Positions 1 through 42,602 of a DNA stretch of 64,000 nt are shown here, one piece after another. A model generated the notes under the pieces. It was not told the DNA's origin and made no database searches. It saw nothing but the letters and a program-made list of their open reading frames with translations. How positions within the stretch are numbered: the stretch's first letter is position 1; each line of letters starts with the position of its first letter. A program made the translations under genes and the position numbers. The stretch is from Leptolyngbyaceae cyanobacterium (lineage in GTDB: Bacteria > Cyanobacteriota > Cyanobacteriia > Phormidesmidales > Phormidesmidaceae), in assembly GCA_965263355.1 (NCBI GenBank), contig CBDHHL010000048.1, positions 160,001-224,000 of the forward strand, written 5' to 3'.

Positions 1-9
1 AAACCGTCA

Positions 10-2493
10 TTGGGTGACCAAGTCGACCAATGTTATGAGCAGGGCCTTTACCAACAGGCACTGACTAAGTTAAAGCAAGCTCAGAAGCTCGATCAGGCCA
101 AGGATATTAGTCTGAGCGAGGCAGATATATTACTAGCTTGGGGGATCGATCAGGCGGAAAAAGCAGCCTATTCCATGGCCGAGAAAACACTACGGCAAGC
201 CATGGAATTAGGGGCATTTGGTCAGCAAGGGGAAGCCTATTATTGGTTGGCTAAATGCTTATTGGAAATGGAGCAGCCCCAAGCGGCACTGGAGTTAGTC
301 CAAACAGCTTTTAACACCAATCAACTCCACAAACAACAGGGAGGGTGCTATCTCAAACTGTTGGTAATCAATGACCAAATAGACACGGTCGCTACCTTGA
401 TCGAAACCAAGAAAAATCGATTCTATGCGGCCCATCTCCACTGGGCACGGGGAATACTCTCGCTCCATCAAGAATCTCCTAAAGATGCTCTTGCCCACTT
501 TAAAAAAATGGGGAATCGTACTACCTTGGGCGATTGGCCCACTGCCTGGACAGTGTATGCGAAACAGCAAGCAGGTCAGTGGGCAGATTCAAGTTTAGAG
601 CAAATATTGGGTCTTCAGAATTCATCCTTAAGGCATTCACCCTTCTCAACATTTAAACCAAAGCAAGCCAAACATCCGGCCATCCTGCGTCTGACTTTGA
701 CACAGCTAGCCCACACCTTTAGTCATGATTTTTCAGAGCATGTGCCCCTGGATGAACTGACCCCAGTTGAGGAAGAGGCTGCCATAGTGCTACAAACGCT
801 GCGCATGATCGACCAGGACGACGTTCATGATGCGGCCCATCTGTTTTTAGAGTTTTTCAAGGATATCTCAGATTCCTTTCCCCAATTTCAAGAGCTGCAT
901 GATCCGCTGATGACCTTGGCTGGGACAGCTGCTATGGGTACCCATGAACCCAACTATGCGGAAAAATTCTGGTCCCGTTTGGTGAAACCTACACTTCAGG
1001 ATCCTCAAATTGCCATTCATCTGCGTCAGGCCATGTTTGAAAATGGTTCTGACCATGCTGCCATCGGTGTCATTAAGCAATTAAGTCAATGGGTCGAAGC
1101 ACAAACCACTTGGACCGAATCGCAACGACAGGCTATCGTGGCTCACCTCCACTGCTGGACCTGTGATCACTTAATTAATCTCAAAAAACTTGGCAAAGCT
1201 GAACAAGTCGTTAAGTCAGCCATTAAACTGGCCCCTGAATCACCTTCAGTGGTGGGTCGCCAAGGGTTACTGGCCGCAAGACAGAAACGATATAAGCAAG
1301 CGATTCCCTTACTAACGCAGTCCTTAAAGGGCGGTTCTAGCGTTGTCAATATTTATGAGGAACTGGTTGATTGTCTTGAAAAAACCGGTGATAAGACTAC
1401 TCTCAAGCAGGTGCGTCGTCAATATGGTAAGTCCTTTGGCGATTTAGATACGGAACCGGATCTGCCTCGCTGGCAGGAGATTTTTACCTATCGTCTCTTC
1501 TTTATGCTGCAAGACGCTACTGGGAATGTAGAGCGCAATGATTTTCCTAGTCGTGCCATCAAGATTTTTGTCGACGCTGCAACTGATACACCCAATAAAG
1601 ATCAGCGGGTGACCTTTGACCAAACTAAAGCTGCCGACCAATGGGAAGCGCTACTTGCGCCCTTGAGTCCTGAGCAGCAGGTGCCCGTGCTCCAGGCCAT
1701 TGGTTTAGTAATGGCCATCTATGCCAAACGGAAAAAAGGTTTGGCTGCGTTGCAAACCCGTTACCAGACTCAGCTCATTAGCCTAATTGACGACCATCCC
1801 ACAGCTCAAATGGCAAACCTGGTATGTCTGACAGTCAAAGAAAAGAAGGCAGAGCGCCTGTCTGTGGCAATTAATACTTATCTTAAGTCAGTAGCTCAGC
1901 CTCACCAGGCCATTGCTCGGTTGCAACTCAACGTACGCTGGTTTGTAACCACATCTGTTTTGCTATCGTGGTTAGACCAAGCTTTGGCCAAAGATCCTCA
2001 AAATCCATTGTTGCTGTTGGCTAAGGCTACTGTCTACCCCTATGAGACGCCTGAGTACGAGACGCTTTTTGACCAGGGCTTTGAGTTGGCTCGACGCTTA
2101 CAGGATGCTGAAGCTCTGGATGCCTACCGCGATGAAGAATGGTTGCAGGGCCAGGCGATGACCCGTTCTGCTATGTCGAGTATGAGTCGCTCGGGGGGGC
2201 CTCCGTCCATGGGAGACATGGTGGAAATGATTCGCAAAATGGCCCAGGCTCAGTTTGGCGATGAGGTGCCGCCGGAGTTGATAGAGCAACTAGTTATGCA
2301 AATGATGGCGGCTGAATTAGGAGGTGCCATGCCACCGGGTGGCCCCTTTGGCGGTCCCCCTGATGGTTTTCCCCTGCCGCCTATATTTGTTGGAGGGTTT
2401 GAAGAGCCAGATGACTTTGGCGATGACTTTTTTGGGCCACCGCCGGGGGCGAAAAAATCGAAAAAGTCTAAACGGTCTCGACGCTCTCGGTAG
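10..2493 (+). CDS. Large TPR/alpha-solenoid protein with Met/Gly/Pro-rich, acidic then basic C-terminal tail; frame is open to the window edge so the true start may be upstream
   Basis: TPR-like helices (GEAYYWLAKCLLEMEQPQAALELV; KAEQVVKSAIKLAPES; WLDQALAKDPQNPLLLLAKA); first gene of the chaperone cluster. Confidence 0.8.
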   Translation: MGDQVDQCYEQGLYQQALTKLKQAQKLDQAKDISLSEADILLAWGIDQAEKAAYSMAEKTLRQAMELGAFGQQGEAYYWLAKCLLEMEQPQAALELVQTAFNTNQLHKQQGGCYLKLLVINDQIDTVATLIETKKNRFYAAHLHWARGILSLHQESPKDALAHFKKMGNRTTLGDWPTAWTVYAKQQAGQWADSSLEQILGLQNSSLRHSPFSTFKPKQAKHPAILRLTLTQLAHTFSHDFSEHVPLDELTPVEEEAAIVLQTLRMIDQDDVHDAAHLFLEFFKDISDSFPQFQELHDPLMTLAGTAAMGTHEPNYAEKFWSRLVKPTLQDPQIAIHLRQAMFENGSDHAAIGVIKQLSQWVEAQTTWTESQRQAIVAHLHCWTCDHLINLKKLGKAEQVVKSAIKLAPESPSVVGRQGLLAARQKRYKQAIPLLTQSLKGGSSVVNIYEELVDCLEKTGDKTTLKQVRRQYGKSFGDLDTEPDLPRWQEIFTYRLFFMLQDATGNVERNDFPSRAIKIFVDAATDTPNKDQRVTFDQTKAADQWEALLAPLSPEQQVPVLQAIGLVMAIYAKRKKGLAALQTRYQTQLISLIDDHPTAQMANLVCLTVKEKKAERLSVAINTYLKSVAQPHQAIARLQLNVRWFVTTSVLLSWLDQALAKDPQNPLLLLAKATVYPYETPEYETLFDQGFELARRLQDAEALDAYRDEEWLQGQAMTRSAMSSMSRSGGPPSMGDMVEMIRKMAQAQFGDEVPPELIEQLVMQMMAAELGGAMPPGGPFGGPPDGFPLPPIFVGGFEEPDDFGDDFFGPPPGAKKSKKSKRSRRSR

Positions 2494-2517
2494 GAGCATT
2501 ACATATAACGCCCCTAC
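2490..2517. repeat. GTAG-type REP-like palindrome overlapping the TPR gene stop codon
   Basis: gtaggagcattacatataacgcccctac; 12-bp arms with 2 mismatches. Confidence 0.7.
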
Positions 2518-2549
2518 GCCATCAAATTTTAATTATGAGCTAATAAATC

Positions 2550-2846
2550 ATGACCACGCCGTTTGAACAGTTAGGGATTGCTCCAGAGGCTAGTGCCAAA
2601 GAGATTAAACGGGCTTACCATGCCAAATTGAAAGAATTTCCGGCCCACACCCATCCCGAGGAGTTTAAGGCGATTCGAGCTGCCTACGATGCTGTCCGCC
2701 AGGGTAGTACCGTCACGGTAGAAGAGTTCTTTAAACGCAAGCCGTTAGAGGCTAGTTTTGACGATAAGATCCTGACTAGCCTTAGGGAGCAGGCCACTGC
2801 TAAGATCCAAGTTGACCTGAAAACCCTGACCCGTCTTACCTTTTAG
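2550..2846 (+). CDS. Small J-domain protein with non-canonical HPD loop
   Basis: PFEQLGIAPEASAKEIKRAY...FKAIRAAYD J-domain pattern; PAH at the HPD position, HPE four residues later. Confidence 0.85.
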   Translation: MTTPFEQLGIAPEASAKEIKRAYHAKLKEFPAHTHPEEFKAIRAAYDAVRQGSTVTVEEFFKRKPLEASFDDKILTSLREQATAKIQVDLKTLTRLTF

Positions 2847-2856
2847 CGATAACGTA

Positions 2857-3348
2857 ATGTCTCAGACTCCTCGCGATCGCATCGCCCAGCGTCGCCAACT
2901 GCAAAAGCAGCAATCCCAGATCTTTTTAGACTTGTTGCCAGTGCTGGATGATTTAGACCGTGCCTGTAACCATTGGCAACAGGCACAGCAGTCCCAAGAA
3001 ACACCTGTGGAGAAGAAAAGTTCGGTACCTTGGTGGCGTAAGATATTTAACTGGAACACGAGCCAGACTCTTGACCAATCCACCGAACTCAATGCCATGG
3101 TCAAGAGTGCCCATGACGGTGTGTCCCTCATTCGTCAGTCACTACTGGAGGTATTGGAGCGTCAGGCGGTCACCCCCATTGAAACCTTAGGTCAGCCATT
3201 TGACCCTAAACATATGAATGCCATGGGTCGAGAAGCGAGTCCTGATACGTCTCCTAATACGGTGATTAAAGAAATTCTCAAGGGATATCGCTGGCAAGAT
3301 CGGGTGTTAAGAGAGGCTCAGGTAATTGTTGCAGACAGGTCTAAGTGA
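2857..3348 (+). CDS. grpE: GrpE-family nucleotide exchange factor, N-terminally shortened
   Basis: LLPVLDDLDRA, GQPFDPKHMNA, KGYRWQDRVLREAQVIV motifs. Confidence 0.9.
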   Translation: MSQTPRDRIAQRRQLQKQQSQIFLDLLPVLDDLDRACNHWQQAQQSQETPVEKKSSVPWWRKIFNWNTSQTLDQSTELNAMVKSAHDGVSLIRQSLLEVLERQAVTPIETLGQPFDPKHMNAMGREASPDTSPNTVIKEILKGYRWQDRVLREAQVIVADRSK

Positions 3349-3379
3349 AATCTATCGAATGCCTAAATTCATCCCTACA

Positions 3380-3404
3380 GTAGGAGCATTGCATACAATG
3401 CCCC
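3380..3404. repeat. Degenerate GTAG-type REP-like palindrome
   Basis: gtaggagcattgcatacaatgcccc, similar to 2490-2517. Confidence 0.6.
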
Positions 3405-3449
3405 ATCCAACCAGATTTTTTTACCTTATAAAATCCCTATCTCTAGACT

Positions 3450-5021
3450 ATGGCCATTATCGGTATTGATCTCGGTACGACTAATTCTGTTGTTGCTGCC
3501 CTGGAAGGGGGGCAACCCTGGGTAATTCCGGATGATGATGATGAACTGCTGCTACCCTCCTGTGTGGGTTTAGACAATGGTGGCAAGCTATTGGTAGGAG
3601 ATTATGCCCTACGACAATATGCCTCTGCGCCAGAGCGTACCATCAAGTCCATTAAGCGTCAGATGGGAACAGACTATGAGGTCACACTGGGTGAGCAAGT
3701 ATATTCCCCCCAGGCAATTTCAGCCATGATTTTGCGCACCCTGAAGGAACAGGCAGAAACCGTCTTGGAAGAGCCAGTGACCCAAGCGGTGATTACGGTG
3801 CCTGCATACTTTACCGATGCCCAGCGGCAGGCAACCAAGGAAGCTGGAGAGATTGCGGGGCTAGAAGTATTACAAATCTTAAATGAGCCTACCGCTGCCG
3901 CCTTGGTTTTCGAAAACCGTAGTGAAGATGGGGAAACGGTTTTAGTATATGACCTTGGTGGAGGCACCTTTGATGTCTCAATTGTGGACATTACCGGAGA
4001 TGTAACAGAGGTATTGGCCAGCCATGGTAATAATCGCCTCGGTGGAGACGACTTTGACCGCCAGCTTCAGCGTCACTTAATCAATAAGTTTCAGCAGATC
4101 AACGGCGAGAGTTTACCTGACGACCCGGCGATTGAAGCACGACTATTACGGGCGGCAGAAACCGCCAAAATTGAGCTGAGTGAGCATGGATTTGTGGCAG
4201 TCAGGGAACCATTTTTGGTCAGCCAGGGGAGTACGGCCTTACACTTGGAAACCGAAATTGCCCGAGAAGATTTTGAGCATTTGATTACGCCCATGCTCAA
4301 GGAAACGTTGGAGGCGATTGATCGCGCCCTGAGTGATGCATCTATGGCAGCCAACGATCTCAATCGGGTTGTGTTGGTGGGGGGCTCCACCCGGATTCCA
4401 CTGGTACAACGGATGGTGCAAAACCATTTGTCAGGGGTACCTGTGAGTAGTTTTGAGCCAGACCTCTGTGTGGCGATGGGGGCAGCGGTGCAGGCGGGAG
4501 TTCTGTCTGGGGCTGAAATCGAGTCGATTTTGGTGGATGTTGTGCCCCATTCGTTGGGGATTGCGGTCATGATGGATGTGGGCATGGGCATGCCCATGCC
4601 TGGTATGTTTAGTACGATTATTCCGAGGAATACGGTGATTCCGACATCTCGCTCTGAGGTATATAAGACCTCTAGAAACAATCAGGAGAAAGTGGAGATA
4701 GAGGTTTATCAAGGGGAGAATGCTATTGCTAAGGAAAATGTCCCCTTGGGCTCTTTTATGGTTGAGGAGTTACCGCCTAAACCGGCGGGGGCAATCCAAG
4801 TGGAGGTGACGTTTGATTTTGATATTAATGGGATTTTGACGGTTACCGCGACGGAAAAGGGTGCGGGAAAGCAGGGGTCTCTGGTGGTGAATGATGCGGA
4901 TACAGGACGGTTGTCTAGCAATGAACTGCTCCAGGCGCAGGAGAGTCTGGAGCAGTTGTTTGACCTAAGTAAGAGTCCTTTGATGGATGTGTTGGCTAGC
5001 GCAGTTGAAGAAGAAGAATAG
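3450..5021 (+). CDS. Hsp70-family chaperone, short HscC-like paralog lacking most of the helical lid
   Basis: GIDLGTTNS, ITVPAYF, NEPTAA, DLGGGTFD, LVGGSTRIP, YQGE motifs; 523 aa, ends shortly after the SBD-beta domain. Confidence 0.95.
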   Translation: MAIIGIDLGTTNSVVAALEGGQPWVIPDDDDELLLPSCVGLDNGGKLLVGDYALRQYASAPERTIKSIKRQMGTDYEVTLGEQVYSPQAISAMILRTLKEQAETVLEEPVTQAVITVPAYFTDAQRQATKEAGEIAGLEVLQILNEPTAAALVFENRSEDGETVLVYDLGGGTFDVSIVDITGDVTEVLASHGNNRLGGDDFDRQLQRHLINKFQQINGESLPDDPAIEARLLRAAETAKIELSEHGFVAVREPFLVSQGSTALHLETEIAREDFEHLITPMLKETLEAIDRALSDASMAANDLNRVVLVGGSTRIPLVQRMVQNHLSGVPVSSFEPDLCVAMGAAVQAGVLSGAEIESILVDVVPHSLGIAVMMDVGMGMPMPGMFSTIIPRNTVIPTSRSEVYKTSRNNQEKVEIEVYQGENAIAKENVPLGSFMVEELPPKPAGAIQVEVTFDFDINGILTVTATEKGAGKQGSLVVNDADTGRLSSNELLQAQESLEQLFDLSKSPLMDVLASAVEEEE

Positions 5022-5068
5022 ATTTTGTTTGTCGGGGCTTTGCGTGTATCTCACATTGTATGTACCCT

Positions 5069-5108
5069 AACCGCGTCGGGGCGTTGCATGCAACGCCCCG
5101 ACGCGGTT
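5069..5108. repeat. Perfect 40-bp palindrome (REP-like), possible terminator of the chaperone operon
   Basis: aaccgcgtcggggcgttgca/tgcaacgccccgacgcggtt exact reverse complements. Confidence 0.85.
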
Positions 5109-5211
5109 GATTTTTGCCACCTCATCTACGGGAAAGAATACGGGCACAGTTGTATCCAGTCAATGGCCGAATATCACAAATGACGAGCATAGGCAGCATA
5201 CCGAGCACCCC

Positions 5212-5362: not shown

Positions 5363-5789
5363 ATGGCCGTTCCCGATATCTACACTTGCCGAGCGGTTTT
5401 TAGACACACTGACCGCTTCGTTTGAGTCTCCAGCCAAGCGCCCGGTGGTCTTTCATATTTGGGGCTTGGGCTTAGCCATTAAACCCGACCTACACGAAGC
5501 ACTCTATAACAAGGGCATTTCGTTGGCTAATCTGGGCCGATACGAGGACGCCATCAACGCCTATGACCAGGCCCTTGCCATCAAACCGGACTATCACAAC
5601 GCGCTCCATAACAAAGCCTGTGCCAACGCTCTTTCTAACAAGCCTGACGCATCTCTGACATTTCTCCAAAAAGCAATTGAGCTTGCCCCTGAAAAATATT
5701 GCGAACTCGCCAAAACCGACACCGACTTCAACAATCTTCGCAACAACCCACGTTTTCAGACCCTCATCACCAGCTCTGAATTAACCTGA
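5363..5789 (+). pseudogene. Remnant of a probable P-loop NTPase-TPR protein (frameshift plus internal deletion), leaving two C-terminal TPRs
   Basis: ATG at 5363 out of frame with ...AERFLDTL..RPVVFHIWGLG, which joins directly to LAIKPDLHEALYNKG TPR repeats and a typical cyanobacterial TPR C-cap (AKTDTDFNNLRNNPRF). Confidence 0.6.
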
Positions 5790-6172: not shown

Positions 6173-7555
6173 ATGCGTCACCTATCTACCTTTCTACTCA
6201 CCCTCCTGCTCCTCACCAACGGCTCCATCCATAAAACCCCGGCCCAGCCGCCAGAACCAGGCAACCCTGACAGCACAATTATTGAGACAGTCCCCTTACC
6301 AGAGATCGAAGCAGAAACCTTACCCGATAACGTCGCTCAGCGAATCCAAACCGACCTCGCCCAACGCCTCAGTCTAGCCACCAACACAACCATCACTATT
6401 GACAACATCACCATCGCCCGCCACAGCCGCGAAACCTGGTCCGACAGCTGCCTTGGTCTCAGCAGTCCCGCCGAATCATGCCTAGCCGCCCTCACCGAAG
6501 GCTGGCAAGTAGAAGCCATCTACCAAAGTCAACAGTTCTTCTACCGCACCGACCTCAGCGGTAACCACATCCGCCGCTCTACCCTCAGTCATAATCTCCC
6601 CCCCTCCCTCCAAACCAGAATTCTCCAAACCGCCCAGACCAAAGGCTTTGGCCCCAACCTATCCATTGCCGACGCCCAAACCAAACTATGGGGCGGCTGC
6701 TACGGATTACCCACTGAAGCAGACGTATGTGCGGCCATCGGCATCTATGGCTGGCAAGCCATTGTCACTGACGGTGACCATTACTGGATTTATCACACCG
6801 ACAATCTTGGTAACACCATTCTCCTCAACGAACTCGCCAGCAGCAACACCGCCATTCCCAGCTTTATTACCCCATCTGAGTTTGAGACACTTAAGCGCGA
6901 AACCACCTTTCAAAGCAGTGTCACAGGGGGCATCGCTAACTTAGACGATGTTTACAGCCTCCATCAGAATGGCGCACTATCAGTCCAGAGCCCAAGCGAT
7001 TATGGCAAGCCCCAAAGACTACGTCGCGCTACCATCAGCCCACCACAGCTAGACAACTTCTACAATCAGCTTACAGACAACAACTTTAATACCTTCAATG
7101 GTCTGCTCTACTTACCCAAATTAGACGCCGCAGCCTACCGTATTGTCAATCTCAGAGCGCAAAACGGTCATGTCGCCTTTGCCGACTTTATTTTCAGTGA
7201 TTTGCCACCCCAATTGCAGGCAATCACCCAAAGCTGGGAAACTCTCCAGGCTCAGACTGAAACAACGACCCTTATCTCTGCCAACAATCGTCCAACTGAG
7301 CTACCGGTAAACATTCAAAGCCAAATACTTTTTAATCTGGCCGTTTACCTACGGGTACCCGTTGAGCAGGTTAGCATTCAAAATTATAGCCAACAAACCT
7401 GGTCTGACGGCTGCCTGGGCCTTGGTGGTCCCACTGAGCTATGTCTGGCGGCCCTGACCGAAGGTTGGCACGTCGAAGCAGTCGATACCGAAACAAATCA
7501 AACCTATGGTTATCGAACTAACCTAAACGGCGCTCAGATTCGACGTGAGCCTTAA
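6173..7555 (+). CDS. Secreted hypothetical protein with repeated Cys-pair domains (TWSDxCLGL...C..ALTEGW...YRT)
   Basis: N-terminal signal peptide; two close and one degenerate copy of the domain. Confidence 0.75.
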   Translation: MRHLSTFLLTLLLLTNGSIHKTPAQPPEPGNPDSTIIETVPLPEIEAETLPDNVAQRIQTDLAQRLSLATNTTITIDNITIARHSRETWSDSCLGLSSPAESCLAALTEGWQVEAIYQSQQFFYRTDLSGNHIRRSTLSHNLPPSLQTRILQTAQTKGFGPNLSIADAQTKLWGGCYGLPTEADVCAAIGIYGWQAIVTDGDHYWIYHTDNLGNTILLNELASSNTAIPSFITPSEFETLKRETTFQSSVTGGIANLDDVYSLHQNGALSVQSPSDYGKPQRLRRATISPPQLDNFYNQLTDNNFNTFNGLLYLPKLDAAAYRIVNLRAQNGHVAFADFIFSDLPPQLQAITQSWETLQAQTETTTLISANNRPTELPVNIQSQILFNLAVYLRVPVEQVSIQNYSQQTWSDGCLGLGGPTELCLAALTEGWHVEAVDTETNQTYGYRTNLNGAQIRREP

Positions 7556-7577: not shown

Positions 7578-8045
7578 CTAATTCTCTGAACGCTGTTCCA
7601 AAAATCTGGCAAAAGCCTTTAATTCGGCAGCCACCTGACTAAATATTTGTCGAACCTCGCCTACTAATTCACCAATTCTCTCAGACTCGAATTATTCAGA
7701 ATAAACATGGCGAACAATATGCCGAAATGCTCGATACTTGTCTAGGCCTTGCAAACTAGACACAGAAATAATGGCAGGACGTATCGAATTTACCTCCATT
7801 GCCATCTGCTGTAATAATTGCTGATGCCAGTTTTTGCCAGCTGGTTGTTCTCCATCAATATCGCGAGCGATTATTTCAAACAAACGCTCTACACCGTTGT
7901 AGGCACCTTGCAAATTTAAAGCTGCACTATCAACATACAGTTCATCATTGGTTTGCTCAAATCTTTGCCAAGCCATTACAGCACGTTCAATCGCAATGTT
8001 AATTGACTGAAATTCTTTGACAATGCGTTGGGCTAACCTACTCAA
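7578..8045 (-). pseudogene. HepT-like HEPN ribonuclease toxin interrupted by an in-frame TAA at 7692-7694
   Basis: YNGVERLF, WHQQLL, FRHIVRHVY (RxxxxH) motifs; frame continues FESERIGELV...AFARFLEQRSEN to TAG at 7578. Confidence 0.8.
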
Positions 8046-8412
8046 ACGTCAATACCCTCTTCGTTAATCGATTCTAAAATCCAAGCACGACAGGTATTGG
8101 GGTTCACCAAATCCACCTTAAATTCTTCGCTATAGTCCATTACAGCCAAAAAAGCATCATAATAATGTTCTTTTGGGATTCCCCAAACCGCCAAGTCAAT
8201 ATCTGAATCCAATGAGAAGTAATCGACCTTAATGGCCAAGCCAAAAACCTTGACTTGACTTGCTCCAAACCTATCTCTCAGAAGCTTTGTCAGTTCAGGG
8301 ATAAGTTCCCAAGCTTTTTCTCAACGCACTGCCACCTCAGCAGATGCTTGACTTTGGGCACTGTGTAACGCTTCCATTCCTCTGGTGTCAGCTCTAGTGC
8401 AGTTTTAGTCAT
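8042..8412 (-). pseudogene. MNT (minimal nucleotidyltransferase) antitoxin with frameshift and internal stop
   Basis: MTKTALELTPEEWKRY.. then frame change ASAEVAVR*EKAWELIPEL..RFGASQVKVFGLA..SDIDLAVWG..FKVDLV. Confidence 0.8.
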
Positions 8413-26468: not shown

Positions 26469-27023
26469 TTATGCATGTAAGACCTGCTTTAATTCAGTCG
26501 CCACTGAATCCATTGGCTGATGACCATTAATGGATACCAACTGCTGGCGATTTCTAAAAAACTCAATTAAGGGTTCTGTCTGTTGACGATAGACCTCTAA
26601 ACGGTTACGAATGACCGATTCATTATCATCTTTGCGGCCACGTGCCAGTAATCTCGATACCAATACATCGTCTGGCACTTCGAGATTCAAAACACATTCA
26701 CAGGGCTGACTAATTTCTATCAATAACTTATCTAAAAAATTAGCTTGACTAACATTGCGAGGAAACCCATCTAAAATCCAACCCTTTGATGCATCTTCTT
26801 GATTCAAACGGTCACGAATTAGATCCAAAATCAAATCATCCGGCACCAATTCCCCAGCATCCATATAAGACGCTGCTTTTTGGCCCAGCTCAGTCTGAGC
26901 AGCAACAGCTGAGCGCAAAATATCTCCAGTAGAGATGTGAGGTACACTAAAATCTTTAGATAGAACAGCAGCCTGTGTCCCCTTACCAGCCCCAGGAGGG
27001 CCTAAAAAAATCACTCTTATCAC
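26469..27023 (-). CDS. adk: Adenylate kinase
   Basis: [20 protein letters not shown]. Confidence 0.97.
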
Positions 27024-28345
27024 TACTTTTTCACCATACCTTCGTAACGTTGAGAAATCACATAGGTCTGAATCTGCTTGGCCGTATCAATGGCCACACC
27101 AACAAGGATTAAAAGCGACGTAGCCCCTAATCCTTGAAACACGGTTACACGCAAACCGCTTTCTACCATACTTGGTACCACAGCAACAACGCCTAAGAAA
27201 ATTGCACCTAAGAACGTTAACCGGTTTAAAACTTTACCAATAAAGTTGCTTGTTGCCTTGCCAGGACGAATCCCTGGAATACTAGCACCCATTTTTTTGA
27301 GATTTCGCGACATATCTTCAGGATCTACCACCAGTGATGCATAAAAATAACTGAAGAACAAAATCATCACCAAATACATCAGGTTGTATGGAATGGAGCC
27401 TGGACTCAAAAAGCTAGTAACAAAATCTGATACACCTGGATTAGAGAAGGTTCTGGCAATGTAGGGAGCCGCCTGTAAAGGTAATACTAAGATGGCTGAC
27501 GCAAAAATAATCGGCATTACACCACCTTGATTAAGGCGCAAAGGCAAATAATTGCTCTTTTCTAAATACAGTTTACGCCCTACCTGGCGTCGTGCCGAAA
27601 CGATGGGAATTCGGCGCATGCCCTCTTGTACAAACACAATGCCAACCACCATGGCCAAGTACACAAGGCTGACAACGACAATCCCTGCAACCTCTTGGCG
27701 CGTAGAGTTAGGATTCTGAGCAACCGTCACCGCACTATTAAGCAAACGAGGTAATGATGAAACGATGTTGAGGAAAATTAACAGGGATGCCCCATTACCA
27801 ACACCACGCTCAGTGATTAATTCACCTACCCACATCACAAACATAGAACCCGCTGTCAGAGCAACAGCAGTTTCCATAATGAATGGAATACCAGGTTGGT
27901 TAGCAAAAGGACTGAGCAAAAAGCTCGCCAACAAAGTACTCTGCAAAACTGCCCAGCCCATTGCTACATAACGGGTAATTTGAGAAATCTTACGACGCCC
28001 AGCCTCCCCTTCATTTTTTTGCAAATCCTCTAACTGAGGAATCGCGGCTGTCAGCAACTGCATAATGATAGAAGCATTAATGTAAGGCAGAATGCCTAGA
28101 GCAAAAATACCCAGCAAGGATAAACCACCACCCACAAAAATATCTAGAAATCCCAGAAGACCTCCAGCATCAACTTGTTGTGAAAAAGCGACTCGATCAA
28201 TCCCTGGCACAGGAATATACATCCCAAACCGTACCAGTACTAATAACCCTAGAGTCACCAATAAACGTCCGCGCAGGCCCGCCGCTTGGGCCATCTGCAA
28301 AAACGTTTCTTGGGCGCTGGGTGTCTTTCCTCGACTGACAACCAT
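27023..28345 (-). CDS. secY: Preprotein translocase SecY
   Basis: [27 protein letters not shown]. Confidence 0.98.
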
Positions 28346-28442
28346 AATTTTTAGATTCTGTTTGAGATTCTAATTAAACGTGAGCTGTACCCAGACTAAA
28401 ACCAAGGCACAGCCCACTGGGATATAGATTTATTCTAAAGGC

Positions 28443-28889
28443 TTACGCCACGATTTCACAGGTACCGCCAGCAGCCTCAATCTTAGCCCTAGCACTGTGG
28501 GTAAATGCTGCTGCCTTAACCGTCAAAGCAACATTTAGCTCACCATTGCCCAGAATTTTTAGCGGGCCGTCATTGGCAGTGATGATACCAGCGGCCATTA
28601 AAGACTCCATTGTGACCTCGGTACCAGCAGATAGTTCAACCAAACGTGAAACATTTAGCACAGTGAATACCTTCTGATTCACAATGGGAAAATGCTTCAA
28701 CTTGGGAATCCGGCGATACAAAGGCAGTTGGCCACCTTCAAAGCCGGGACGGGTAGGACGTCCCGAGCGAGCTTTTTGACCGCGCATGCCAAACCCACAA
28801 GTAGCTCCTTGACCCGCCGCAATACCACGACCTACACGACGCCGACGTCGCTTTGATCCAGCTTTTGGCCCAACATCCTCTAGTCTCAT
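28443..28889 (-). CDS. rplO: 50S ribosomal protein L15
   Basis: [23 protein letters not shown]. Confidence 0.97.
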
Positions 28890-28924
28890 CGTTTTAAATC
28901 CCAACAAATGCAATTATTTCAGAC

Positions 28925-29449
28925 CTAAGCGTAAAGCTTCTCAAGAGGAATTCCACGCTCCTTAGCGACCTCAGAGAATGTGCGCAGAGAAGCCAATGCA
29001 GCAGCAGCAGCTCGAGCATTATTCAACTGGTTACCAGACCCAAGTTGCTTAGCCAAAACATTTCTCACCCCTGCCAATTCAAGCACAGTACGAACCGCCC
29101 CACCTGCAATTACACCGGTACCAGGAGCTGCCGGACGCATAAACACACGTGCGCCACCAGCTTCACCAGTGGCGGGATGAGGTAATGAATAAGCCTTATT
29201 TAAGGGCACGTCTACCAGTTTTTTCTTACCATCGGCCACACCTTTCTTAACAGCACCGATTACATCACTGGCTTTACCGACACCAACACCAACCTGACCT
29301 TTCTCATTACCAATCACCACAATGGCTCGAAAGCTTAGTTTTTTACCCCCTTTGACCACCTTAGTCACACGGCGGATTTGGACTACTCGCTCCTGCCACT
29401 CTGATTCTTTCTCTTTTCCCTTGTTACTCTTGCGACGTTCCTTTGCCAT
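28925..29449 (-). CDS. rpsE: 30S ribosomal protein S5
   Basis: [17 protein letters not shown]. Confidence 0.98.
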
Positions 29450-29479
29450 AATTAAAACCTTTAGCCTTTAGAAAAAGTT

Positions 29480-29839
29480 CTAGAAATCCAGACCAGCTTC
29501 ACGAGCAGCCTCTGCCAAAGCTGCTACACGACCGTGGTAAAGCTTACCACCACGATCAAAAACAACTTGTTTAACCCCCTGGGCCAAGGAACGCTCAGCG
29601 ATCAGCTTCCCAACTTTAGCTGAAGCATCCTTAGTAGAGCCACTGCCATCTCCTTTAATATCAACGTCCAGCGTTGAAGCTGACGCTAACGTATGATGCT
29701 TATAATCATCAATAATTTGCGCGTAAATATGATTGTTAGAACGATATACTGCTAATCGAGGCCGTTCAGCAGTTCCTTTAACTCGACGACGAATTCGCGC
29801 GTGACGACGACGAGTAGACTGTTTGCGCGTAGCTTTCAT
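29480..29839 (-). CDS. rplR: 50S ribosomal protein L18
   Basis: [15 protein letters not shown]. Confidence 0.98.
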
Positions 29840-29846
29840 AACTCAA

Positions 29847-30383
29847 TTACTTCCCTGATTTACCAGCTTTACGTCTGACCATCTCACCGAGATAGCGTAC
29901 TCCTTTACCTTTGTAGGGTTCAGGGGGTCGAGCATCACGAATCTTAGCGGCAATTGTACCAACCAATTCTTTGTCAATTCCGGACACGATTACATTGGTA
30001 TTACTTTCTACCTTAAACTCGATGCCTGCTGGCGGCTCAAATTCAACCGGATGGCTATAGCCCAGATTCATCGTTAACGTCTTGCCCTTCACAGCTGCAC
30101 GATAACCAACTCCCTTAATCTCAAGGCGTTTTTCAAATCCCTTGGAAACACCTTCTACCATGTTGGCAATTAAGGTACGTGAAAGACCATGACGAGCACG
30201 CGCCAAACGCGAATCATCTTGACGAGTCACCACAACTTGTTCACCCTCTTGGGCAATATTGACCTCTCCAGGTAAAACACGGGACAGCTCACCCTTGGGA
30301 CCTTTAACAGCTACTGATTGAGCATCAATAGATACGGTTACACCTGAAGGTACAGGTACCGGCTTTTTACCAATCCGAGACAT
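29847..30383 (-). CDS. rplF: 50S ribosomal protein L6
   Basis: [16 protein letters not shown]. Confidence 0.98.
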
Positions 30384-30450
30384 TTTTAATCCTTCCCTAA
30401 TCGCCAGCAATGGCCATGCAAATAAACTCTAAGACAAGCAATGTGAAACA

Positions 30451-30852
30451 CTACCAGACATAACAGAGGACTTCCCCACCCACACCCTTATGGCGTGCAT
30501 CCCTATCAGTCATAATGCCACTTGAGGTAGAGACAATGGCAACACCAATCCCTCCCAAAACTCGAGGTAGATCCTTACAGCTTGAATAAACTCGTAAGCC
30601 TGGCTTACTGACACGGGTTAGATTACGAATAATGGGCTGCTGCATTTTACCCTTGTACCTCAGGCTCACAGTAATCATACGTGCCACACCTTCAGTTGAT
30701 TCCGAGGTATCGCCAATAAATCCCTCTTCTTGAAGGACCTTGGCAATATTACGGGTAACTTTGGTAGATGGAATTTGGACAGTCCTATGCCGCGCAAGAT
30801 TTGCATTTCGAATGCGCGTCAGCATGTCTGAAATCGTATCGTTAGACGCCAT
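30451..30852 (-). CDS. rpsH: 30S ribosomal protein S8
   Basis: [17 protein letters not shown]. Confidence 0.98.
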
Positions 30853-30873
30853 ATTTCTCTCTCATATAAACCA

Positions 30874-31419
30874 TTAGTTATCCCGGAACGGCATTCCCAA
30901 CTCTTTGAGGAGGGCACGTCCTTCTTCATCGGTCTTGGCAGTGGTAACAATCGTGATATCCATGCCTCGCACCTGATCAACGCTGTCGTAACTAACCTCA
31001 GGAAAAATCAACTGCTCACGCAGTCCCAGAGTATAGTTTCCTCGACCATCAAAACTCTTAGGACTTACACCCCGAAAGTCACGAATACGGGGCAGAACCA
31101 AATTAATTAATCGATTTAAGAATGCATACATGCGTTCTGAACGCAGGGTCACCATGACTCCTACTGGCATACCTTGACGAATTTTAAATCCAGCAATTGC
31201 TTTCTTAGCTCGTGTAATTACTGGCCGCTGACCAGTAATTACGCCTACCTCAGTAACTGACGCTTCTAACGCTTTGGCATTCTGTGAGGCTTCTCCTAAA
31301 CCACGATTAACGGTCACCTTTAATACTTTAGGTACCTGATGTACATTTCTATACTCAAATTGCTCCATCAGCTTAGGAACAACTTTCGTATTGTAAAAAT
31401 CTTTGAGCTGTTCAACCAT
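30874..31419 (-). CDS. rplE: 50S ribosomal protein L5
   Basis: [15 protein letters not shown]. Confidence 0.98.
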
Positions 31420-31463
31420 TCTCTCGTTCCTTTCCCTGGGCTTGGTCAGGGACAAATAATAAG

Positions 31464-31805
31464 CTAATCAATAATTTCGCCTGTCTTTTTCAAGATGCGA
31501 ACCTTGCGACCATCTTCAGTAAAGGTATGACCAACTCGACTGGCAACCTTTTCTTTTTTGGAATAAATCATCACATTAGAACTGTGAACTGGAAACTCGG
31601 ATGTCACGAGCTGCCCCGATTCACCTTCTTGGCGAGGTTTTACGTGTTTAGTTCGAATATTGACACCTTCAACAATGACCTGACTTTTCTTAGGTAAGAC
31701 TGCGGTCACTTCACCTACTTTGCCTTTATCCTTGCCGGTGATAACCTGCACAGTGTCGCCTTTCTTGATGTGCATCTTATGACGCACAGGTTGCTTGCTA
31801 GCCAC
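31464..31805 (-). CDS. rplX: 50S ribosomal protein L24
   Basis: [16 protein letters not shown]. Confidence 0.98.
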
Positions 31806-32170
31806 TACAGTACCTCCGGTGCTAGTGAAACAATTTTAGTAAAGTTGCGATCGCGTAGCTCACGAGCAACCGGCCCAAAAACACGAGTCCCTTTCGGGTT
31901 GTTATCGTTATTAATCAGCACAGCAGCATTATCGTCAAATCGAATACTCATGCCACTGCTACGCCGCAGATTCTTTCTAGTACGAACCACCACTGCCCGA
32001 ACAACATCAGACTTTTTCACACCCATATTCGGTAGTGCGTCTTTAACAACAGCGATAATCACATCGCCCACACTGGCATAGCGACGATTCCCCCCCAGAA
32101 CACGAATGCACATTAACTTACGTGCACCGCTGTTATCTGCCACATTCAGATATGTTTCCTGCTGAATCAT
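31805..32170 (-). CDS. rplN: 50S ribosomal protein L14
   Basis: VADNSGA, FDDNAAV. Confidence 0.98.
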
Positions 32171-32182
32171 TAATTGGCTCCC

Positions 32183-32434
32183 CTATACTCTTTCAGAACG
32201 GCCTAAAATATTGGCAACGACCCAGCACTTAGTTCGACTTAGGGGGCGACTTTCGCGGATACGCACAATATCCCCAGCCTTACACTCATTAGAGTCATCA
32301 TGGGCCTTGTACTTCTTAGTACGAACAACAATTTTCTGATACTTAGGATGGGGGACACGATTTTCAACAGCCACTACAACTGTCTTATCCATTTTGTTGC
32401 TAACCACTCGTCCTGTTAGTTCTCTAGCTGCCAT
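32183..32434 (-). CDS. rpsQ: 30S ribosomal protein S17
   Basis: [18 protein letters not shown]. Confidence 0.97.
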
Positions 32435-32450
32435 AGCTGTTTAACTCCTA

Positions 32451-32696
32451 CTACTCGCTACTTACTACCGCATCATCTTCACTGACTACACCAGCACTCA
32501 GTTGACGCTCGCGCTCTATAGTCATTAGCTGAGCTAATTTACGGCGAGCATGCTTAAACTGATGAAAACCCGTCTCCATCTGCCGGGTAGCCTGCTGAAA
32601 ACGCAAATCAAACAACGCACGCTTAACATTAGCGATTTCAGCAGATAATTCATCATCACTAAGTTTTCTTAACTCTTTAGCTTTAGAAAGCGCCAT
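32451..32696 (-). CDS. rpmC: 50S ribosomal protein L29
   Basis: LFDLRFQQAT; operon position. Confidence 0.95.
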   Translation of the reverse strand: MALSKAKELRKLSDDELSAEIANVKRALFDLRFQQATRQMETGFHQFKHARRKLAQLMTIERERQLSAGVVSEDDAVVSSE

Positions 32697-32699
32697 GAC

Positions 32700-33119
32700 T
32701 TAACCCTCCAATCCTTCACGGGCAATGAACTTAGTTTTGAATGGCAACTTGAAGGAGGCTAAACGCATGGCTTCACGAGCAATTTCCTCAGGCACACCGG
32801 TAATTTCAAAAATGATTCGACCGGGCTTTATCACAGCGACCCAAAACTCTGGATTACCCTTACCAGAACCCATACGGGTCTCTGCCGGACGCATAGTCAC
32901 AGGCTTATCTGGAAAAACACGAATCCAAATCTTTCCGCCACGCTTTACATAACGGGTCATCGCACGACGAGCAGCCTCAATTTGACGCGACGTCATCCAA
33001 GAGCACTCAGTCGCCTGGAGAGCATATTCACCAAAATTGATTTTGCTACCACGATGGGCCATACCGCGCATACGACCGCGATGCTGCTTACGAAATTTTG
33101 TTCTTCTAGGACTCAGCAT
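32700..33119 (-). CDS. rplP: 50S ribosomal protein L16
   Basis: [15 protein letters not shown]. Confidence 0.98.
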
Positions 33120-33154
33120 GATGCTTAAACGGCTAAACAGCTAAAGAGAGAAAA

Positions 33155-33886
33155 TTAGGAATCGTTCGACCGATCCTCAAACTGCTGACGACGACGTGGC
33201 TGACGACGTCGCGGCTGATTGTTAGCGGGTTGAGGAACCTCCTCTTGCCCAGGAATAATTTCACCCTTAAAGACCCAGATCTTAATCCCCAAAATTCCAT
33301 AGGTAGTCTGGGCGGTTTTATAGGCATAGTCAATATTGGCACGCAGCGTATGCAAAGGTACACGCCCCTCACGAGTCCACTCAGTACGAGCAATCTCAGC
33401 TCCATTTAAACGACCACTTACCTGAATCTTAATCCCCTCAACCCCAGCTCGTTGAGCTCGCTGAATTGTCTGCCGCACAACTCGACGAAACGACACACGT
33501 CTCTCCAACTGCTGCACAATATACTCAGCAATTAGAGCCGCTTCAGCATCAACACGGGCTACCTCAATAACATTGATACGAATCTGGCGAGTGTTATCCT
33601 TTAACTGCTTCTGCAAGCCAGCCCGTAAAGATTCAATGCCTGTACCACCACGCCCAACCACAACACCTGGACGCGCCGTGTGTAACTCTAAATCAATTTG
33701 ATCAGCTTTACGAGCAATTTTGATGTCAGAAATACCAGCATTATTGAGATTCTTCTCAATATACTGACGAATAACATGATCTTCTTGCAGCTGACCAGGA
33801 TACTGCCTTGAATCAGCATACCAACAGGAAGCATGTTCCTTAGTAATGCCAAGTCGAAAGCCAATTGGGTTAATTTTCTGTCCCAC
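33155..33886 (-). CDS. rpsC: 30S ribosomal protein S3
   Basis: [22 protein letters not shown]. Confidence 0.98.
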
Positions 33887-33927
33887 AAATCTTTCCCTTA
33901 TAAAGAGCTAACAGCAAAAAACTAGGT

Positions 33928-34290
33928 CTAGCTCGAAGAGCCAGGAGCAACCGCAATGGTGATATGACAAGTCGGCTTTCGAATTTGGTAAGCACGACCT
34001 TGAGCCCGAGGACGATACCGCTTCAAAACAGGTCCCTGATCGGCAAATGCCTCACTGACATAAAGATCAACAGGATCCATCCCATTGTTATGCTCAGCAT
34101 TGGCTACAGCAGAACGAAGCACTTTCAAAATAGGCTCACAGGCCCTGTAGGGCATAAACTCAAGAATAATAAGCGCCTCTCTGTAGGAAAGACCTCTAAT
34201 TTGATCAAGCACTCGCCGGACCTTATGGGGAGACATACGTATATAGCGAGCAACAGACTTGACTTGATTACTACTATCGATTTCAACCAT
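33928..34290 (-). CDS. rplV: 50S ribosomal protein L22
   Basis: [17 protein letters not shown]. Confidence 0.98.
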
Positions 34291-34301
34291 GGCTAATCTC
34301 C

Positions 34302-34580
34302 CTAGCGTCGCGCTTTCTTATCACTCTTGACATGCCCACGAAACGTTCGTGTGGGAGCAAATTCGCCTAATTTATGCCCCACCATCTGCTCATTAACATA
34401 CACGGGCACATGTTGGCGACCATTATGAACAGCGATGGTGTGGCCAATCATCTGAGGAATGATGGTGGAGGCACGAGACCAAGTTTTAATAACCTGCTTA
34501 TCTCCTTTTACGTTGAGCCTTTCAATCTTTTTGAGCAAATGATCTGCCACAAAAGGACCTTTCTTGAGAGAGCGAGCCAT
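34302..34580 (-). CDS. rpsS: 30S ribosomal protein S19
   Basis: [16 protein letters not shown]. Confidence 0.98.
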
Positions 34581-34661
34581 AGTTTCGCCAGCCTAAAAAA
34601 CAATCGGTTAATAACAAAAGAACTGATAACTTGACACATCCAAACCGCTGGATAATGACAC

Positions 34662-35525
34662 CTATGAGTCACGACCACCACGACCACGCTTGGAAGAGCG
34701 ACGACGACGACGGACGATCAGCGACGTACTTGCCTTCTTCTTATCCCGAGTCTTATAGCCAAGCGCTGGCTTACCCCAAGGAGTCACAGGACCACTGCGA
34801 CCAATAGGCGCACGGCCTTCACCACCACCATGAGGGTGATCTACTGGGTTCATAACACTACCACGCACCTCTGGACGCCGACCCAACCAACGCTTTCGTC
34901 CAGCTTTACCGAGGGTGACGTTGCGAGCTTCCACATTGCCAACCTGACCAATTGTTGCATAACACTCACGACGTACCATACGAACCTCACTTGAGGGCAG
35001 CTTGAGCGTTACATATCCCCCTTCTTTCGCCATTACTTGGGCAGAACCACCCGCTGCACGAACAATTTGACCACCACGTCCAGGATAGAGTTCTACATTA
35101 TGTACAGACGTACCAAGGGGCATCTTGTGCAGCGGCAACGCATTTCCTACTTCAAGGGGAGCATCAAGCCCAGCAATAATAGTAGAACCCACTACCAATC
35201 CAGATGGATGCAGGATATAGCGCCTCTCACCGTCCTCATACTGAACCAGCGAGATTCGAGCATTTCTATTGGGATCGTATTCAACCGAAAGGACTTCAGC
35301 GGTAATATCCCGCTTGTCTCGCTTAAAGTCAATCACACGATATAGGCGCTTGTGACCGCCACCACGATGACGACAAGTAATGACACCCCGATTATTTCTT
35401 CCCTTAGCACGATGAATAGAGCGCGTTAGCTTCTTTTCCGGCTTAGTCCGAGTGATCTCTGAAAAGTCAGAGACACTGCGCTCACGAGTACCTGGAGTTA
35501 GAGGCCGATAAGTACGAATTCCCAT
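34662..35525 (-). CDS. rplB: 50S ribosomal protein L2
   Basis: [13 protein letters not shown]. Confidence 0.98.
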
Positions 35526-35562
35526 GATTTATATGCAAACTAATTAAGTGCTAAAGCCGATA

Positions 35563-35868
35563 CTAAACATCTGGGAAGAGGGGAATAGTATCACCCTCGG
35601 CAAGTGTGACAATAGCTCGTTTGTAAGTAGGTTTGTAACCAATGAAACGACCTAGTCGCTTTTTTTTACGGGGCGGATTCATGGTACTAATACCAATCAC
35701 CTTTACATCAAACAACACCTCAACTGCCGCTTTAATTTCAGTCTTGGTTGCTTTGGGAGCAACCTCAAAGGTGTACTGATTATTTTCCAGATTTAAGGTT
35801 GCTTTTTCAGTAATCAGAGGCTTTCGAATAATATCTGGAAGGTTTCGGGAGTCAATCGCTTTAGGCAC
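35563..35868 (-). CDS. rplW: 50S ribosomal protein L23
   Basis: PLITEKA, KRAIVTL. Confidence 0.97.
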
Positions 35869-36493
35869 CGTACACCTCCTGAACTTTATCTAGCGCAGTC
35901 GCAGTCACTACCAACCGATCAGCCAAAACAATATCGTAAGCATTTAGGTTGGTGACTAAAATAAGCTTGATATTAGCTACATTTCGAACAGAACGGTAAA
36001 CAGTCTCATTTTTCTCAGCCGTAACCATCAGCACTTTTTGATCAGACTCAATTCCCCAACGCTCCATAGCAGAGAGAACCTCTTTTGTCTTAGGCATTGA
36101 AAGCTGGTCAGCAAATTCCTGAACAACAACCATGTCATCTACTCGACTCTGAAATGCCGTACGCAGAGCTAAACGACGCTCCTTACGGTTCATCTTGATC
36201 TCAAAATCACGGGGTTTAGGACCAAAAATAACACCACCACCACGCCACAGCGGAGAACGATTGGAACCAGCACGAGCACGACCAGTTCCCTTTTGACGCC
36301 AAGGCTTACGACCTCCGCCACGCACCTCAGAACGGGTCTTGGAAGACAACGTCCCCTGACGAGAGTTATGCATCTGGCGCAAAATCGCACGATGCACAAT
36401 ATGGGCAGCATTTTCCTCACTAGCCACCTTTAAATCAAGGATTGCAGTACCAATATCAGAGCCCTGCCAATTTTTTACTATGCAATCAACCAT
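35861..36493 (-). CDS. rplD: 50S ribosomal protein L4
   Basis: [14 protein letters not shown]. Confidence 0.98.
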
Positions 36494-36510
36494 GATGAGC
36501 TTTTAGCCCC

Positions 36511-37149
36511 CTATTTTTTGCCAACAATATTTGCAGGGGCAATGTTCAACAATGCGCCTGGTTTACCAGGAACAGCACCCTTTACTAATAAAACATTACG
36601 CTCACCATCAACTTTGACCACGGACAGTTTACGCACAGTGACTTGAACGTTACCTAACTGACCAGCCATTTTTTTACCAGGGTAGACCCGACCAGGGGTT
36701 GTACCAGGACCAATCGAACCTGGTAAACGATGGTTTTTGGAACCATGGGTCATGGGACCACGCCTAAAGTTATGACGCTTTTGGTTACCCGCAAATCCTT
36801 TACCAATACTTTTACCGGAAACATCTACCAACTGCCCAACTTCAAATATATCGGCAGCCAGAGTCTGTCCCAGTTCATAAGCTGAGCTGTCATCAACGCG
36901 ATACTCACGCAAATGACGTAGGTTAGGCGCTCCTGACTTTTTGAGATGACCTAACTCAGGCTTACTCAACGCCTTTTCCGCCACTTCCTGATAGCCAACC
37001 TGCACAGCGCAGTAGCCATCGGTCTGTTGCGTTTTAACCTGAGTAACAACGCAGGGACCAGCTTGAATGACAGTTACAGGCACAGCATTACCAGTGTCAT
37101 CAAACACCTGAGTCATTCCCAGCTTCGTCCCGAGAATACCGACAGACAC
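36511..37149 (-). CDS. rplC: 50S ribosomal protein L3 (GTG start)
   Basis: [30 protein letters not shown]. Confidence 0.98.
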
Positions 37150-42221: not shown

Positions 42222-42602
42222 GTGGCACGTATTGCAGGCGTTGACCTACCAAGGGAGAAGCGCATTGAAATTGGTTTAACTTACATTTATGGTATCGGTC
42301 TGAGCCGATCAAAAGAGATTTTGGCAAAGACTGGGGTCAATGCCGACATTCGCGTTAAGGATTTAGCTGATAGCGATGTCGCCAAACTTCGTGAAGTCGT
42401 TGAAAACGACTATCAGATCGAAGGAGATCTGAGGCGTTGGGAGAGTATGAACATTAAGCGACTGATGGATATTGGTTGCTACCGAGGGCGTCGACATCGA
42501 ACGGGACTACCTGTACGTGGCCAGCGCACTCGCACTAATGCTCGTACTCGTCGAGGTAAGCGTTTGGCCATTGCGGGCAAGAAAAAGCCTGGGAAAAAGT
42601 AG
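42222..42602 (+). CDS. rpsM: 30S ribosomal protein S13
   Basis: [19 protein letters not shown]. Confidence 0.98.

Follow-up and report, generated by a model that had tools for sequence, protein, structure and literature searches.

A patchily distributed cyanobacterial operon encodes a distinct Hsp70 together with an HPD-less J-protein, a modified GrpE and a TPR scaffold

We analysed a stretch of 64,000 nucleotides from a Leptolyngbyaceae cyanobacterium (contig CBDHHL010000048.1, positions 160,001 to 224,000; hereafter the window), which begins with four co-oriented genes for a tetratricopeptide repeat (TPR) protein, a mini J-protein, a GrpE and an Hsp70. This module is real, selected and patchily distributed, with an accessory role, as about one genome in five carries it in two families. 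The genes stand side by side in many filamentous cyanobacteria. Judged by its sequence, the Hsp70 forms a separate lineage outside DnaK, HscA and HscC. The four products probably form a private J-TPR/Hsp70/GrpE machine that acts on a specific client and not in general folding. No description of the cassette was found in the available parts of the literature, to which all citations below refer; the supplements of PMC7159879 and PMC10410713 could list members.

Open reading frame (ORF) calls confirmed the gene arrangement of the original prediction, with four plus-strand frames at 10..2493, 2550..2846, 2857..3348 and 3450..5021 and spacers of 56, 10 and 101 bp. That prediction was also right in the size class of the TPR gene (more than 800 residues) but not in its start. 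The frame already reads open at base 1, and the protein that it matches in the database is 847 residues long, so the TTG at position 10 is residue 21 and not the start, which lies 51 bases to the left of the window. The closest named proteins come from Leptothoe and Leptolyngbya strains (73-91% identity). The unit comprises the following features:

1..2493, plus strand: TPR scaffold gene, 847 residues in full, its first 17 codons lying left of the window
250..1146, plus strand: predicted groove of the TPR protein for the J tail (residues 101-399 of 847), from the complex model and interface conservation
2550..2846, plus strand: mini J-protein, 98 residues, with FPAH at 2637-2648 and the C-terminal tail (residues 48-98) at 2691-2843, from Pfam, alignment and the complex model
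2857..3348, plus strand: short GrpE, 163 residues, with a Trp-rich amphipathic stretch at 3031-3054, from Pfam and alignment
3450..5021, plus strand: specialised Hsp70, 523 residues, with the Gln142 codon (3873-3875) at the position of DnaK R167, from alignment and an AlphaFold model
5068..5109, plus strand: palindrome of 19 pairs followed by a T-run, a likely terminator, from a hairpin scan

The hairpin at 5068-5109 closes the unit, yet hairpins are no more frequent in the region than in shuffled sequences (3 versus a mean of 3.2). Related palindromic repeats lie in two of the spacers in degenerate form (2490-2514 and 3380-3404) and at the operon end (5075-5102), and no further match to their pattern was present in the window. 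No sigma-70 promoter was found on the plus strand between 2400 and 5500.

The J-protein has the J fold and matches solved J-domains (E = 0.003), its Pfam DnaJ match (E = 1.7e-5) falling just below the cut-off (25.3 versus 27.8 bits). It lacks the His-Pro-Asp (HPD) motif, as originally proposed: FPAH sits at the place of YHPD, and all three HPD residues are replaced. F30, P31 and H33 are invariant in 61 J homologues, and the segment from helix II through the loop to helix III (residues 14-47) is the best-conserved part of the protein (0.90 versus 0.65 for the tail); the loop is as short as in DjlB and DjlC. Whether J-domains with a replaced HPD are accidental or selected was called “enigmatic” in a 2026 review (PMC13254874), and another study left non-HPD J-domains out of its final set (PMC10410713). 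A profile search of 1.84 billion representatives revealed a wider J family with motifs of the x-P-P-[ED] type, whose members stand alone or form part of longer fusion proteins. With J-domains of this kind as queries, a metagenome scan yielded 66 loci, some of them cassettes of the same order and others with the J-domain fused to TPR repeats. J-TPR fusions with a C-terminal SEC-C motif occur in loci L184 (5038-6384) and L189 (1037-2401).

The Hsp70 has the hallmarks of its family, namely an actin-like nucleotide-binding domain (NBD) with the catalytic residues, the linker and the beta part of the substrate-binding domain (SBD-beta). It matches positions 1-510 of the 599 of the Pfam HSP70 model (E = 2e-151), the last 89 being absent, and stays under the NCBIfam cut-offs for DnaK (548 versus 648 and 547 versus 823 bits) and for HscA. 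The AlphaFold model, which has a DnaK-like fold by Foldseek (template-modelling (TM) score up to 0.85), contains the NBD, SBD-beta, one helix at 490-508 and a low-confidence helix at 511-520, but no lid bundle. We considered and rejected a strain-specific truncation of the lid or a pseudogene: the same length of 522-523 residues is kept in 12 close homologues (85-91% identity), with a ratio of nonsynonymous to synonymous substitution rates (dN/dS) of about 0.05.

We then compared 61 Hsp70s of the clade in E. coli DnaK numbering. The catalytic and allosteric residues D8, T11, K70, E171, D194, T199, D201, P143 and R151 are kept in 61/61, as are Q378, L391, P419, E217 and D477. The position of R167 stands apart, with Gln in 59 of the 61. 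It is Arg in DnaK, HscA, HscC and all 16 host DnaK-type proteins, and also in the 24 of 24 related cassettes whose J-protein has an acidic third residue in the motif. In E. coli, a change at R167 is able to suppress a change of D35, the aspartate of HPD. D35 bonds both R167 and Q378 (PMC8215388). Other changes concern the nucleotide cleft and the lid latch. K55 is replaced in all 61 proteins (by Leu in 57) and E264 by Arg in 49, so that both cleft salt bridges are altered; these bridges, K55-E267 and R56-E264, slow ADP release (PMC8215388). R467, which forms the R467-D540 lid latch, is Ala in 61/61. A deletion in lobe I leaves 3 of the 26 residues corresponding to DnaK 76-101, a change that occurs in many DnaKs too (PMC8215388), and there is an L1,2 insertion of 8-9 residues; HscC shares both the deletion and an L1,2 insertion. 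In contrast, the GrpE-signature loop has 14 residues as in DnaK, versus 8 in HscC.

Trees were built by a quick IQ-TREE procedure, one on 37 chosen rows (SH-aLRT supports, long branches flagged) and a similar one without 11 named rows and without rows shorter than 460 residues. The cyanobacterial Hsp70s form a clade with support 100, joined at 99 with same-order cassettes from other loci. DnaK and HscA group together at 99, with three Gram-positive DnaKs inside, and the HscC group (100) leaves the clade outside, a branch with support 99 separating the two. Membership in HscC was therefore rejected; the GrpE loop and the adjacent grpE also differ from HscC. HscC, put forward as the nearest analogue, is an analogue but not the family of this protein. 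Identity to the host DnaKs is 47-50% over the matched part. Anabaena azotica and Calothrix PCC 7716 (L107, L108 and L129) also have a divergent Hsp70-like protein of 730 residues with no conserved linker; in genome G004, an additional GrpE is located at a distance of about 4 kb.

GrpE has the four-helix bundle and beta-domain by alignment, with a Pfam match (E = 1e-30) over model positions 56-164 of 165 and the first 55 absent. It begins near E. coli residue 65-69, without the N-terminal tail and with roughly half of the long helix, if not more, gone. The original description of a stripped-down GrpE thus held for the N terminus, but it missed an insertion: one loop has 47 residues and includes a Trp-rich amphipathic stretch, versus 12 residues in E. 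coli. Among 76 GrpEs of the system, the median length of this loop is 57 residues, the hydrophobic moment reaches at least 0.5 in 72 and Trp is present in 74, whereas 4/4 host-type GrpEs read have a 17-residue loop without Trp. In a shuffle control, 417 of 7,500 shuffled inserts (5.6%) reached the hydrophobic moment of their own original. The insert, which we take to resemble membrane-targeting helices such as that of MinD, may place the cycle at the membrane.

The TPR protein is modelled as an all-helical solenoid (AlphaFold predicted local distance difference test (pLDDT) 82.5) with a basic N terminus and a Met-rich helical hairpin around residues 754-790. Its tail (784-847) is disordered, rich in Gly, Pro and acidic residues and then basic; the acidic part is found in 79 of 82 homologues, the basic part in 78 and a final aromatic residue in 60. 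The C terminus of many scaffolds among L001-L084 combines a basic run with a short hydrophobic motif, for example GFQELF or FRDL; in Leptothoe-type scaffolds, that of the window among them, it consists of the basic run only. Foldseek returned generic TPR solenoids only (TM at most 0.23), ESM Atlas returned generic TPR clusters only, and no enzyme domain was detected by Pfam, the AlphaFold model or Foldseek. A reading of the Met-rich end as STI1- or Hip-like, based on a resemblance, was dropped for want of a Pfam match in this protein among 25 of the 53 family rows listed for the alignment.

As the J-domain is fused to TPR repeats in related cassettes, we suspected a split J-TPR protein and modelled the complex. 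TPR residues 18-795 with the J-protein scored 0.80 in three runs, and the best of three controls scored 0.00. Contacts agreed to at least 95% between runs and the partner pLDDT was 83. In calibration, 116 of 157 solved pairs attained this mark, versus 2 of 215 mismatched ones. In the model, J residues 48-98 lie in a groove formed by TPR residues 101-399, while residues 5-47, including FPAH, are outside the listed interface. Within TPR 95-399, conservation is higher in the 67 interface columns than in the other columns (0.65 versus 0.53, p = 7e-4), a comparison that draws on the same alignments as the model. The TPR protein and the mini-J are thus predicted to be the two halves of a split J-protein, with the J tail docked in the TPR groove. 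The TPR protein had been proposed as client, sensor or adaptor; its predicted hold on the J tail favours an adaptor or scaffold role.

A GTDB scan with the J alignment gave 155 relatives, of which 80 were kept, and three plasmid loci brought the set to 83. By gene order, these comprise 42 TPR-J-GrpE-Hsp70-ZnR/TPR loci, where ZnR/TPR is a fifth, zinc-ribbon/TPR gene, 21 TPR-J-GrpE-Hsp70, 13 TPR-J-GrpE, 6 TPR-J and 1 J-GrpE-Hsp70; contig edges end all seven loci of the last two types and 2 of the 13 TPR-J-GrpE loci. In the split operons, a clade Hsp70 was found elsewhere in 10/10 whole genomes searched (9 of the 13 TPR-J-GrpE loci and one further genome). Among the 122 genomes of the family of genome G001, the J-protein is present in 26 and the clade Hsp70 in 27, including all 26 with the J-protein, and the remainder have neither. 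The J-protein occurs in 39 of 201 genomes in the family of G004 and in 11 of 401 in a sample of the phylum (E < 1e-29, 12 candidates scored per genome). Carriers retain ordinary DnaK-type genes and GrpE. Of the points on which the original prediction had staked itself beforehand, synteny and the placement of the Hsp70 came out in its favour, with the TPR-J-GrpE-Hsp70 order kept in 63 of 83 loci and an Hsp70 that does not group with DnaK; together with the co-occurrence in 26/122 genomes, they bear out its dedicated module distinct from DnaK, in which both partners of the J-Hsp70 contact are altered in sequence. Its insulation from the host DnaJ and GrpE is presumed.

The cassette is also present on five cyanobacterial plasmids. 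Three of them belong to one strain, Acaryochloris sp. ‘Moss Beach’ (L003; hits H52, H54 and H55), in whose pMB01 copy both the TPR gene and the Hsp70 gene are split. The cassette also occurs in a metagenome-assembled genome titled Rhizobium sp. Q54 (L067, G405), which the tool places in the cyanobacterial phylum. No relative was found in two viral-contig scans.

Two operon forms emerged from the 62 loci that have GrpE and a complete first Hsp70 ORF. A long GrpE, lid helices and the fifth gene occur together in 41, while 13 have a short GrpE and lack both the lid and the fifth gene; one of the latter (L003) is a frameshifted Hsp70, leaving 12 true cases. Three more loci combine a short GrpE with a lid and no fifth gene, one has a broken GrpE and four offer too little room to judge. 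No long-GrpE locus among the 62 lacks the lid. The fifth gene product has two CxxC motifs in 42/42 cases, and a search with one query did not find this gene in three close genomes. As the lid-less forms fall within a single subclade (support 83), the most reduced state was reached once and its members are not independent repeats; some outgroup cassettes have a long GrpE and the fifth gene. By these comparisons, the window copy represents the most reduced state, derived from the five-gene form. The lid-less Hsp70 and truncated GrpE of the original prediction are thus correct for this copy and a derived subclade, but we rejected lid loss as a hallmark of the system, since 41 of 62 loci keep the lid and the long GrpE.

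In another branch, related cassettes carry a gene with a TPR-Lon protease domain between hsp70 and the J-TPR fusion (L172:6334-7989, L183:5100-6707, L203:2259-3875), which hints at targeted proteolysis there. The cyanobacterial phylum also has a second and distant type of cassette (L138, L144 and L147; genomes G363, G229 and G103), in which the Hsp70 precedes a fusion of J(xSPE) and TPR; in L138, a GrpE lies upstream.

All four genes show dN/dS values of 0.04-0.16 against five relatives, rough figures because dS is near saturation, and their GC content is host-like. The upstream neighbourhood is common to 7 of 8 close loci, the eighth having no upstream DNA. In this lineage, the operon has long resided in the chromosome as a unit, and purifying selection acts on it. 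Downstream of it, the closest locus (L008) has cpeS and pepN directly after hsp70, which identifies 5.1-8.4 kb of the window as a strain-specific insertion. Besides two decayed elements outside the module, listed below, this segment encodes a 460-residue protein (6173-7555) that has no Pfam, NCBIfam or PADLOC match; its start resembles a signal peptide, and a stretch containing Cys is repeated within it.

about 5367..5789, plus strand: internally deleted P-loop NTPase-TPR gene, part of the strain-specific insertion
7578..8412, minus strand: decayed MNT/HepT toxin-antitoxin pair, with a frameshift in MNT and a premature stop in HepT

The start of the NTPase-TPR stub matches the N terminus of an 878-residue P-loop/TPR protein in L010 (E = 1e-7). 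These decayed genes, which had been taken as signs of a variable island, are real and belong to a strain-specific insertion, but the upstream side is stable. Genes of the NTPase-TPR type lie just downstream of the operon in the window and in L007, L010 and L012 (3 of 8 close loci). In 21 loci, nearly all from Nostocales, insertions of up to 5.6 kb sit right after grpE with both operon halves kept. The grpE-hsp70 junction appears as a hot spot for insertion or breakage (L017, L019, L023, L029, L032-L036, L038, L040, L044, L046-L048, L057, L060, L063-L065, L082). The 63 inserted ORFs include 5 PIN, 5 Uma2 and 4 caspase genes as well as PrlF/YhaV, SocA, HicB, Phd and AAA_21, and the caspase genes are accompanied by a small upstream partner.

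We searched for defence functions in the core genes and in neighbour sets de-duplicated by cluster (190 of 232 taken). PADLOC did not identify the core genes as a known anti-phage system, its sole match being a partial hit of the Hsp70 to PDC-M61B. Among upstream neighbours, 8 of 111 had a match, mostly to generic kinase, methylase, Uma2 or helicase domains, a count that stands without a background control, and the 79 downstream neighbours are mostly metabolic. No GTPase, GAP1 or FNIII gene recurred as a neighbour in the 83 loci, with no dedicated GAP1 profile run. Genes for PspA/IM30 and DciA lie a few genes upstream in Leptothoe-type loci (L010:2826-3503, with homologues in L006, L007, L011 and L012). 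Chloroplast Hsp70 acts on VIPP1, which is related to PspA/IM30; the proximity here is probably mere residence. Elsewhere in the window, 26469-37272 and 42222-48028 hold an ordinary cluster of ribosomal protein, secY, adk, rpoA and prfA genes, as read from translations.

A mechanism can be proposed for the private machine. The TPR protein and the mini-J would make up a class-C J-protein in two pieces whose J-domain face stays free, and the client would be chosen by the remaining solenoid or its tails. The FPAH J-domain would then trigger ATP hydrolysis in the cognate Hsp70 only, in keeping with the replacement of R167 by Gln alongside that of the HPD aspartate by His. With the latch gone throughout the clade and the lid gone in the subclade, the client may be held briefly and cycled fast. 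The GrpE tail appears, from a single tree, to have been lost before the lid, an order that would be coherent because the E. coli GrpE tail helps evict the substrate (PMC12915176). The amphipathic Trp-rich insert of GrpE may site the cycle at a membrane, and the outcome would be the remodelling or release of one specific client. A fuller version would make this a fourth bacterial Hsp70 lineage in which FPAH and Gln167 replace HPD and Arg167, with a plug-in J on an 850-residue solenoid and a lid-less, GrpE-tail-less subclade, working as a membrane-tethered disassembler of one complex; we offer it tentatively, as a possibility that goes beyond the private machine itself.

Several observations weigh against this scheme. 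HPD replacements abolished stimulation in every system tested, with only HPE tolerated, according to two reviews (PMC8215388, PMC13254874). Two members (L025 and L062) pair Arg167 with an FPAH J-protein, the R167Q change is one evolutionary event and not many, and a profile hit in L136 reads FRCH. The presence of FPAH in 83/83 loci is a biased count, because the patterns used to find loci included FPAH. The loss of both cleft bridges should speed up ADP release without GrpE, which is odd beside a conserved GrpE. The complex score is a model confidence calibrated on other alignments, and the near-saturation of dS noted above makes dN/dS rough.

The replaced HPD could also mean that the protein is a type IV, or pseudo-, J-protein, which tethers or restrains the Hsp70 without stimulating it, the Hsp70 serving as an ATP-dependent latch on the tail of the TPR protein itself. 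The same reviews on HPD mutants and the lost cleft bridges speak for this, and the basic, often aromatic-ended TPR tail is of the kind of peptide that HscC prefers, with positive charge (PMC8215388). However, helix II, the loop and helix III are the most conserved part of the J-protein and lie outside the predicted TPR interface, and Q378, L391, P419, E217 and D477 are kept in all 61 clade Hsp70s compared. Known pseudo-J-proteins such as Pam16 and DnaJB13 share the J fold and a non-conservative HPD replacement, but the J-protein described here is accompanied by an Hsp70 of its own, in which the residue that contacts HPD has changed as well. We regard the latch as improbable, somewhat more so than a role in conflict, which is itself unlikely. 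In such a role, compatible with the mechanism above, the same machine would sense or dismantle a phage protein, or mature STAND/NTPase-TPR and caspase-type immune proteins. The anti-phage or conflict signalling of the original prediction fits the patchy presence, the five plasmids, the toxin-antitoxin, Uma2 and caspase insertions after grpE and the NTPase-TPR cargo beside the operon. Neighbourhoods with an Hsp70, a GrpE and a DnaJ- or TPR-bearing protein are also known from the GAP1-N2 conflict systems (Kaur et al. 2020, PMC7159879), but such systems require a GTPase, GAP1 and FNIII repeats and are mostly from actinobacteria and firmicutes. Against it stand core genes devoid of effector domains, the lack of a specific PADLOC match, few and mostly generic upstream hits, mostly metabolic downstream neighbours, and the stable chromosomal site, host-like GC and purifying selection in this lineage, and a conflict role is thus weakly supported.

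The operon might instead be an extra general stress chaperone set feeding the host DnaK network, or the decaying remnant of one, given its identity to host DnaKs and the loss of the lid, the GrpE N terminus and the fifth gene here. This is very improbable: the Hsp70 has its own clade, its short form is kept in the 12 close homologues with the dN/dS of about 0.05 given above, and R167Q with lid loss would impair both work with DnaJ and general holding (PMC8215388). DnaK-DnaJ-GrpE shares with the module the three component types, intact ATPase and allosteric residues and the fold, but the module has no HPD, DnaJ client domains, lid or GrpE tail, forms its own clade and is patchy beside intact host DnaKs.

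Among dedicated systems, E. coli HscC with DjlB and DjlC (ybeQ-ybeR-djlB-ybeT-ybeU-djlC-hscC) is alike in that a specialised Hsp70 comes with a J partner of its own and has helical-repeat proteins encoded nearby, and in the lobe-I deletion, the L1,2 insertion, the lost cleft bridges and the short J loop (in part from PMC8215388). Unlike HscC, the present Hsp70 belongs to a separate clade, has a full-length GrpE loop and a co-encoded GrpE, both absent from HscC, carries Gln at R167, comes with an 847-residue TPR scaffold and lacks the lid in this subclade; its J partner is a soluble 98-residue FPAH protein, and that of HscC is tail-anchored with HPE. HscA-HscB resembles the module in concept as a dedicated pair with a weak lid latch, lost salt bridges and a narrow client (partly PMC8215388), but HscA groups with DnaK, has no GrpE loop, keeps R167 and partners an HPD J-protein, and no isc genes occur in the cassette loci.

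The private machine that we favour would allow one to ask whether an Hsp70 can be driven without HPD. A selected, co-inherited HPD-less J-protein, together with its own Hsp70 changed at the contact of the HPD aspartate, makes this question testable with four soluble proteins and two point swaps. The family also provides a natural lid-less Hsp70 to set against orthologues that have the lid (65-70% identity), and might yield an orthogonal Hsp70/J pair of use in engineering.

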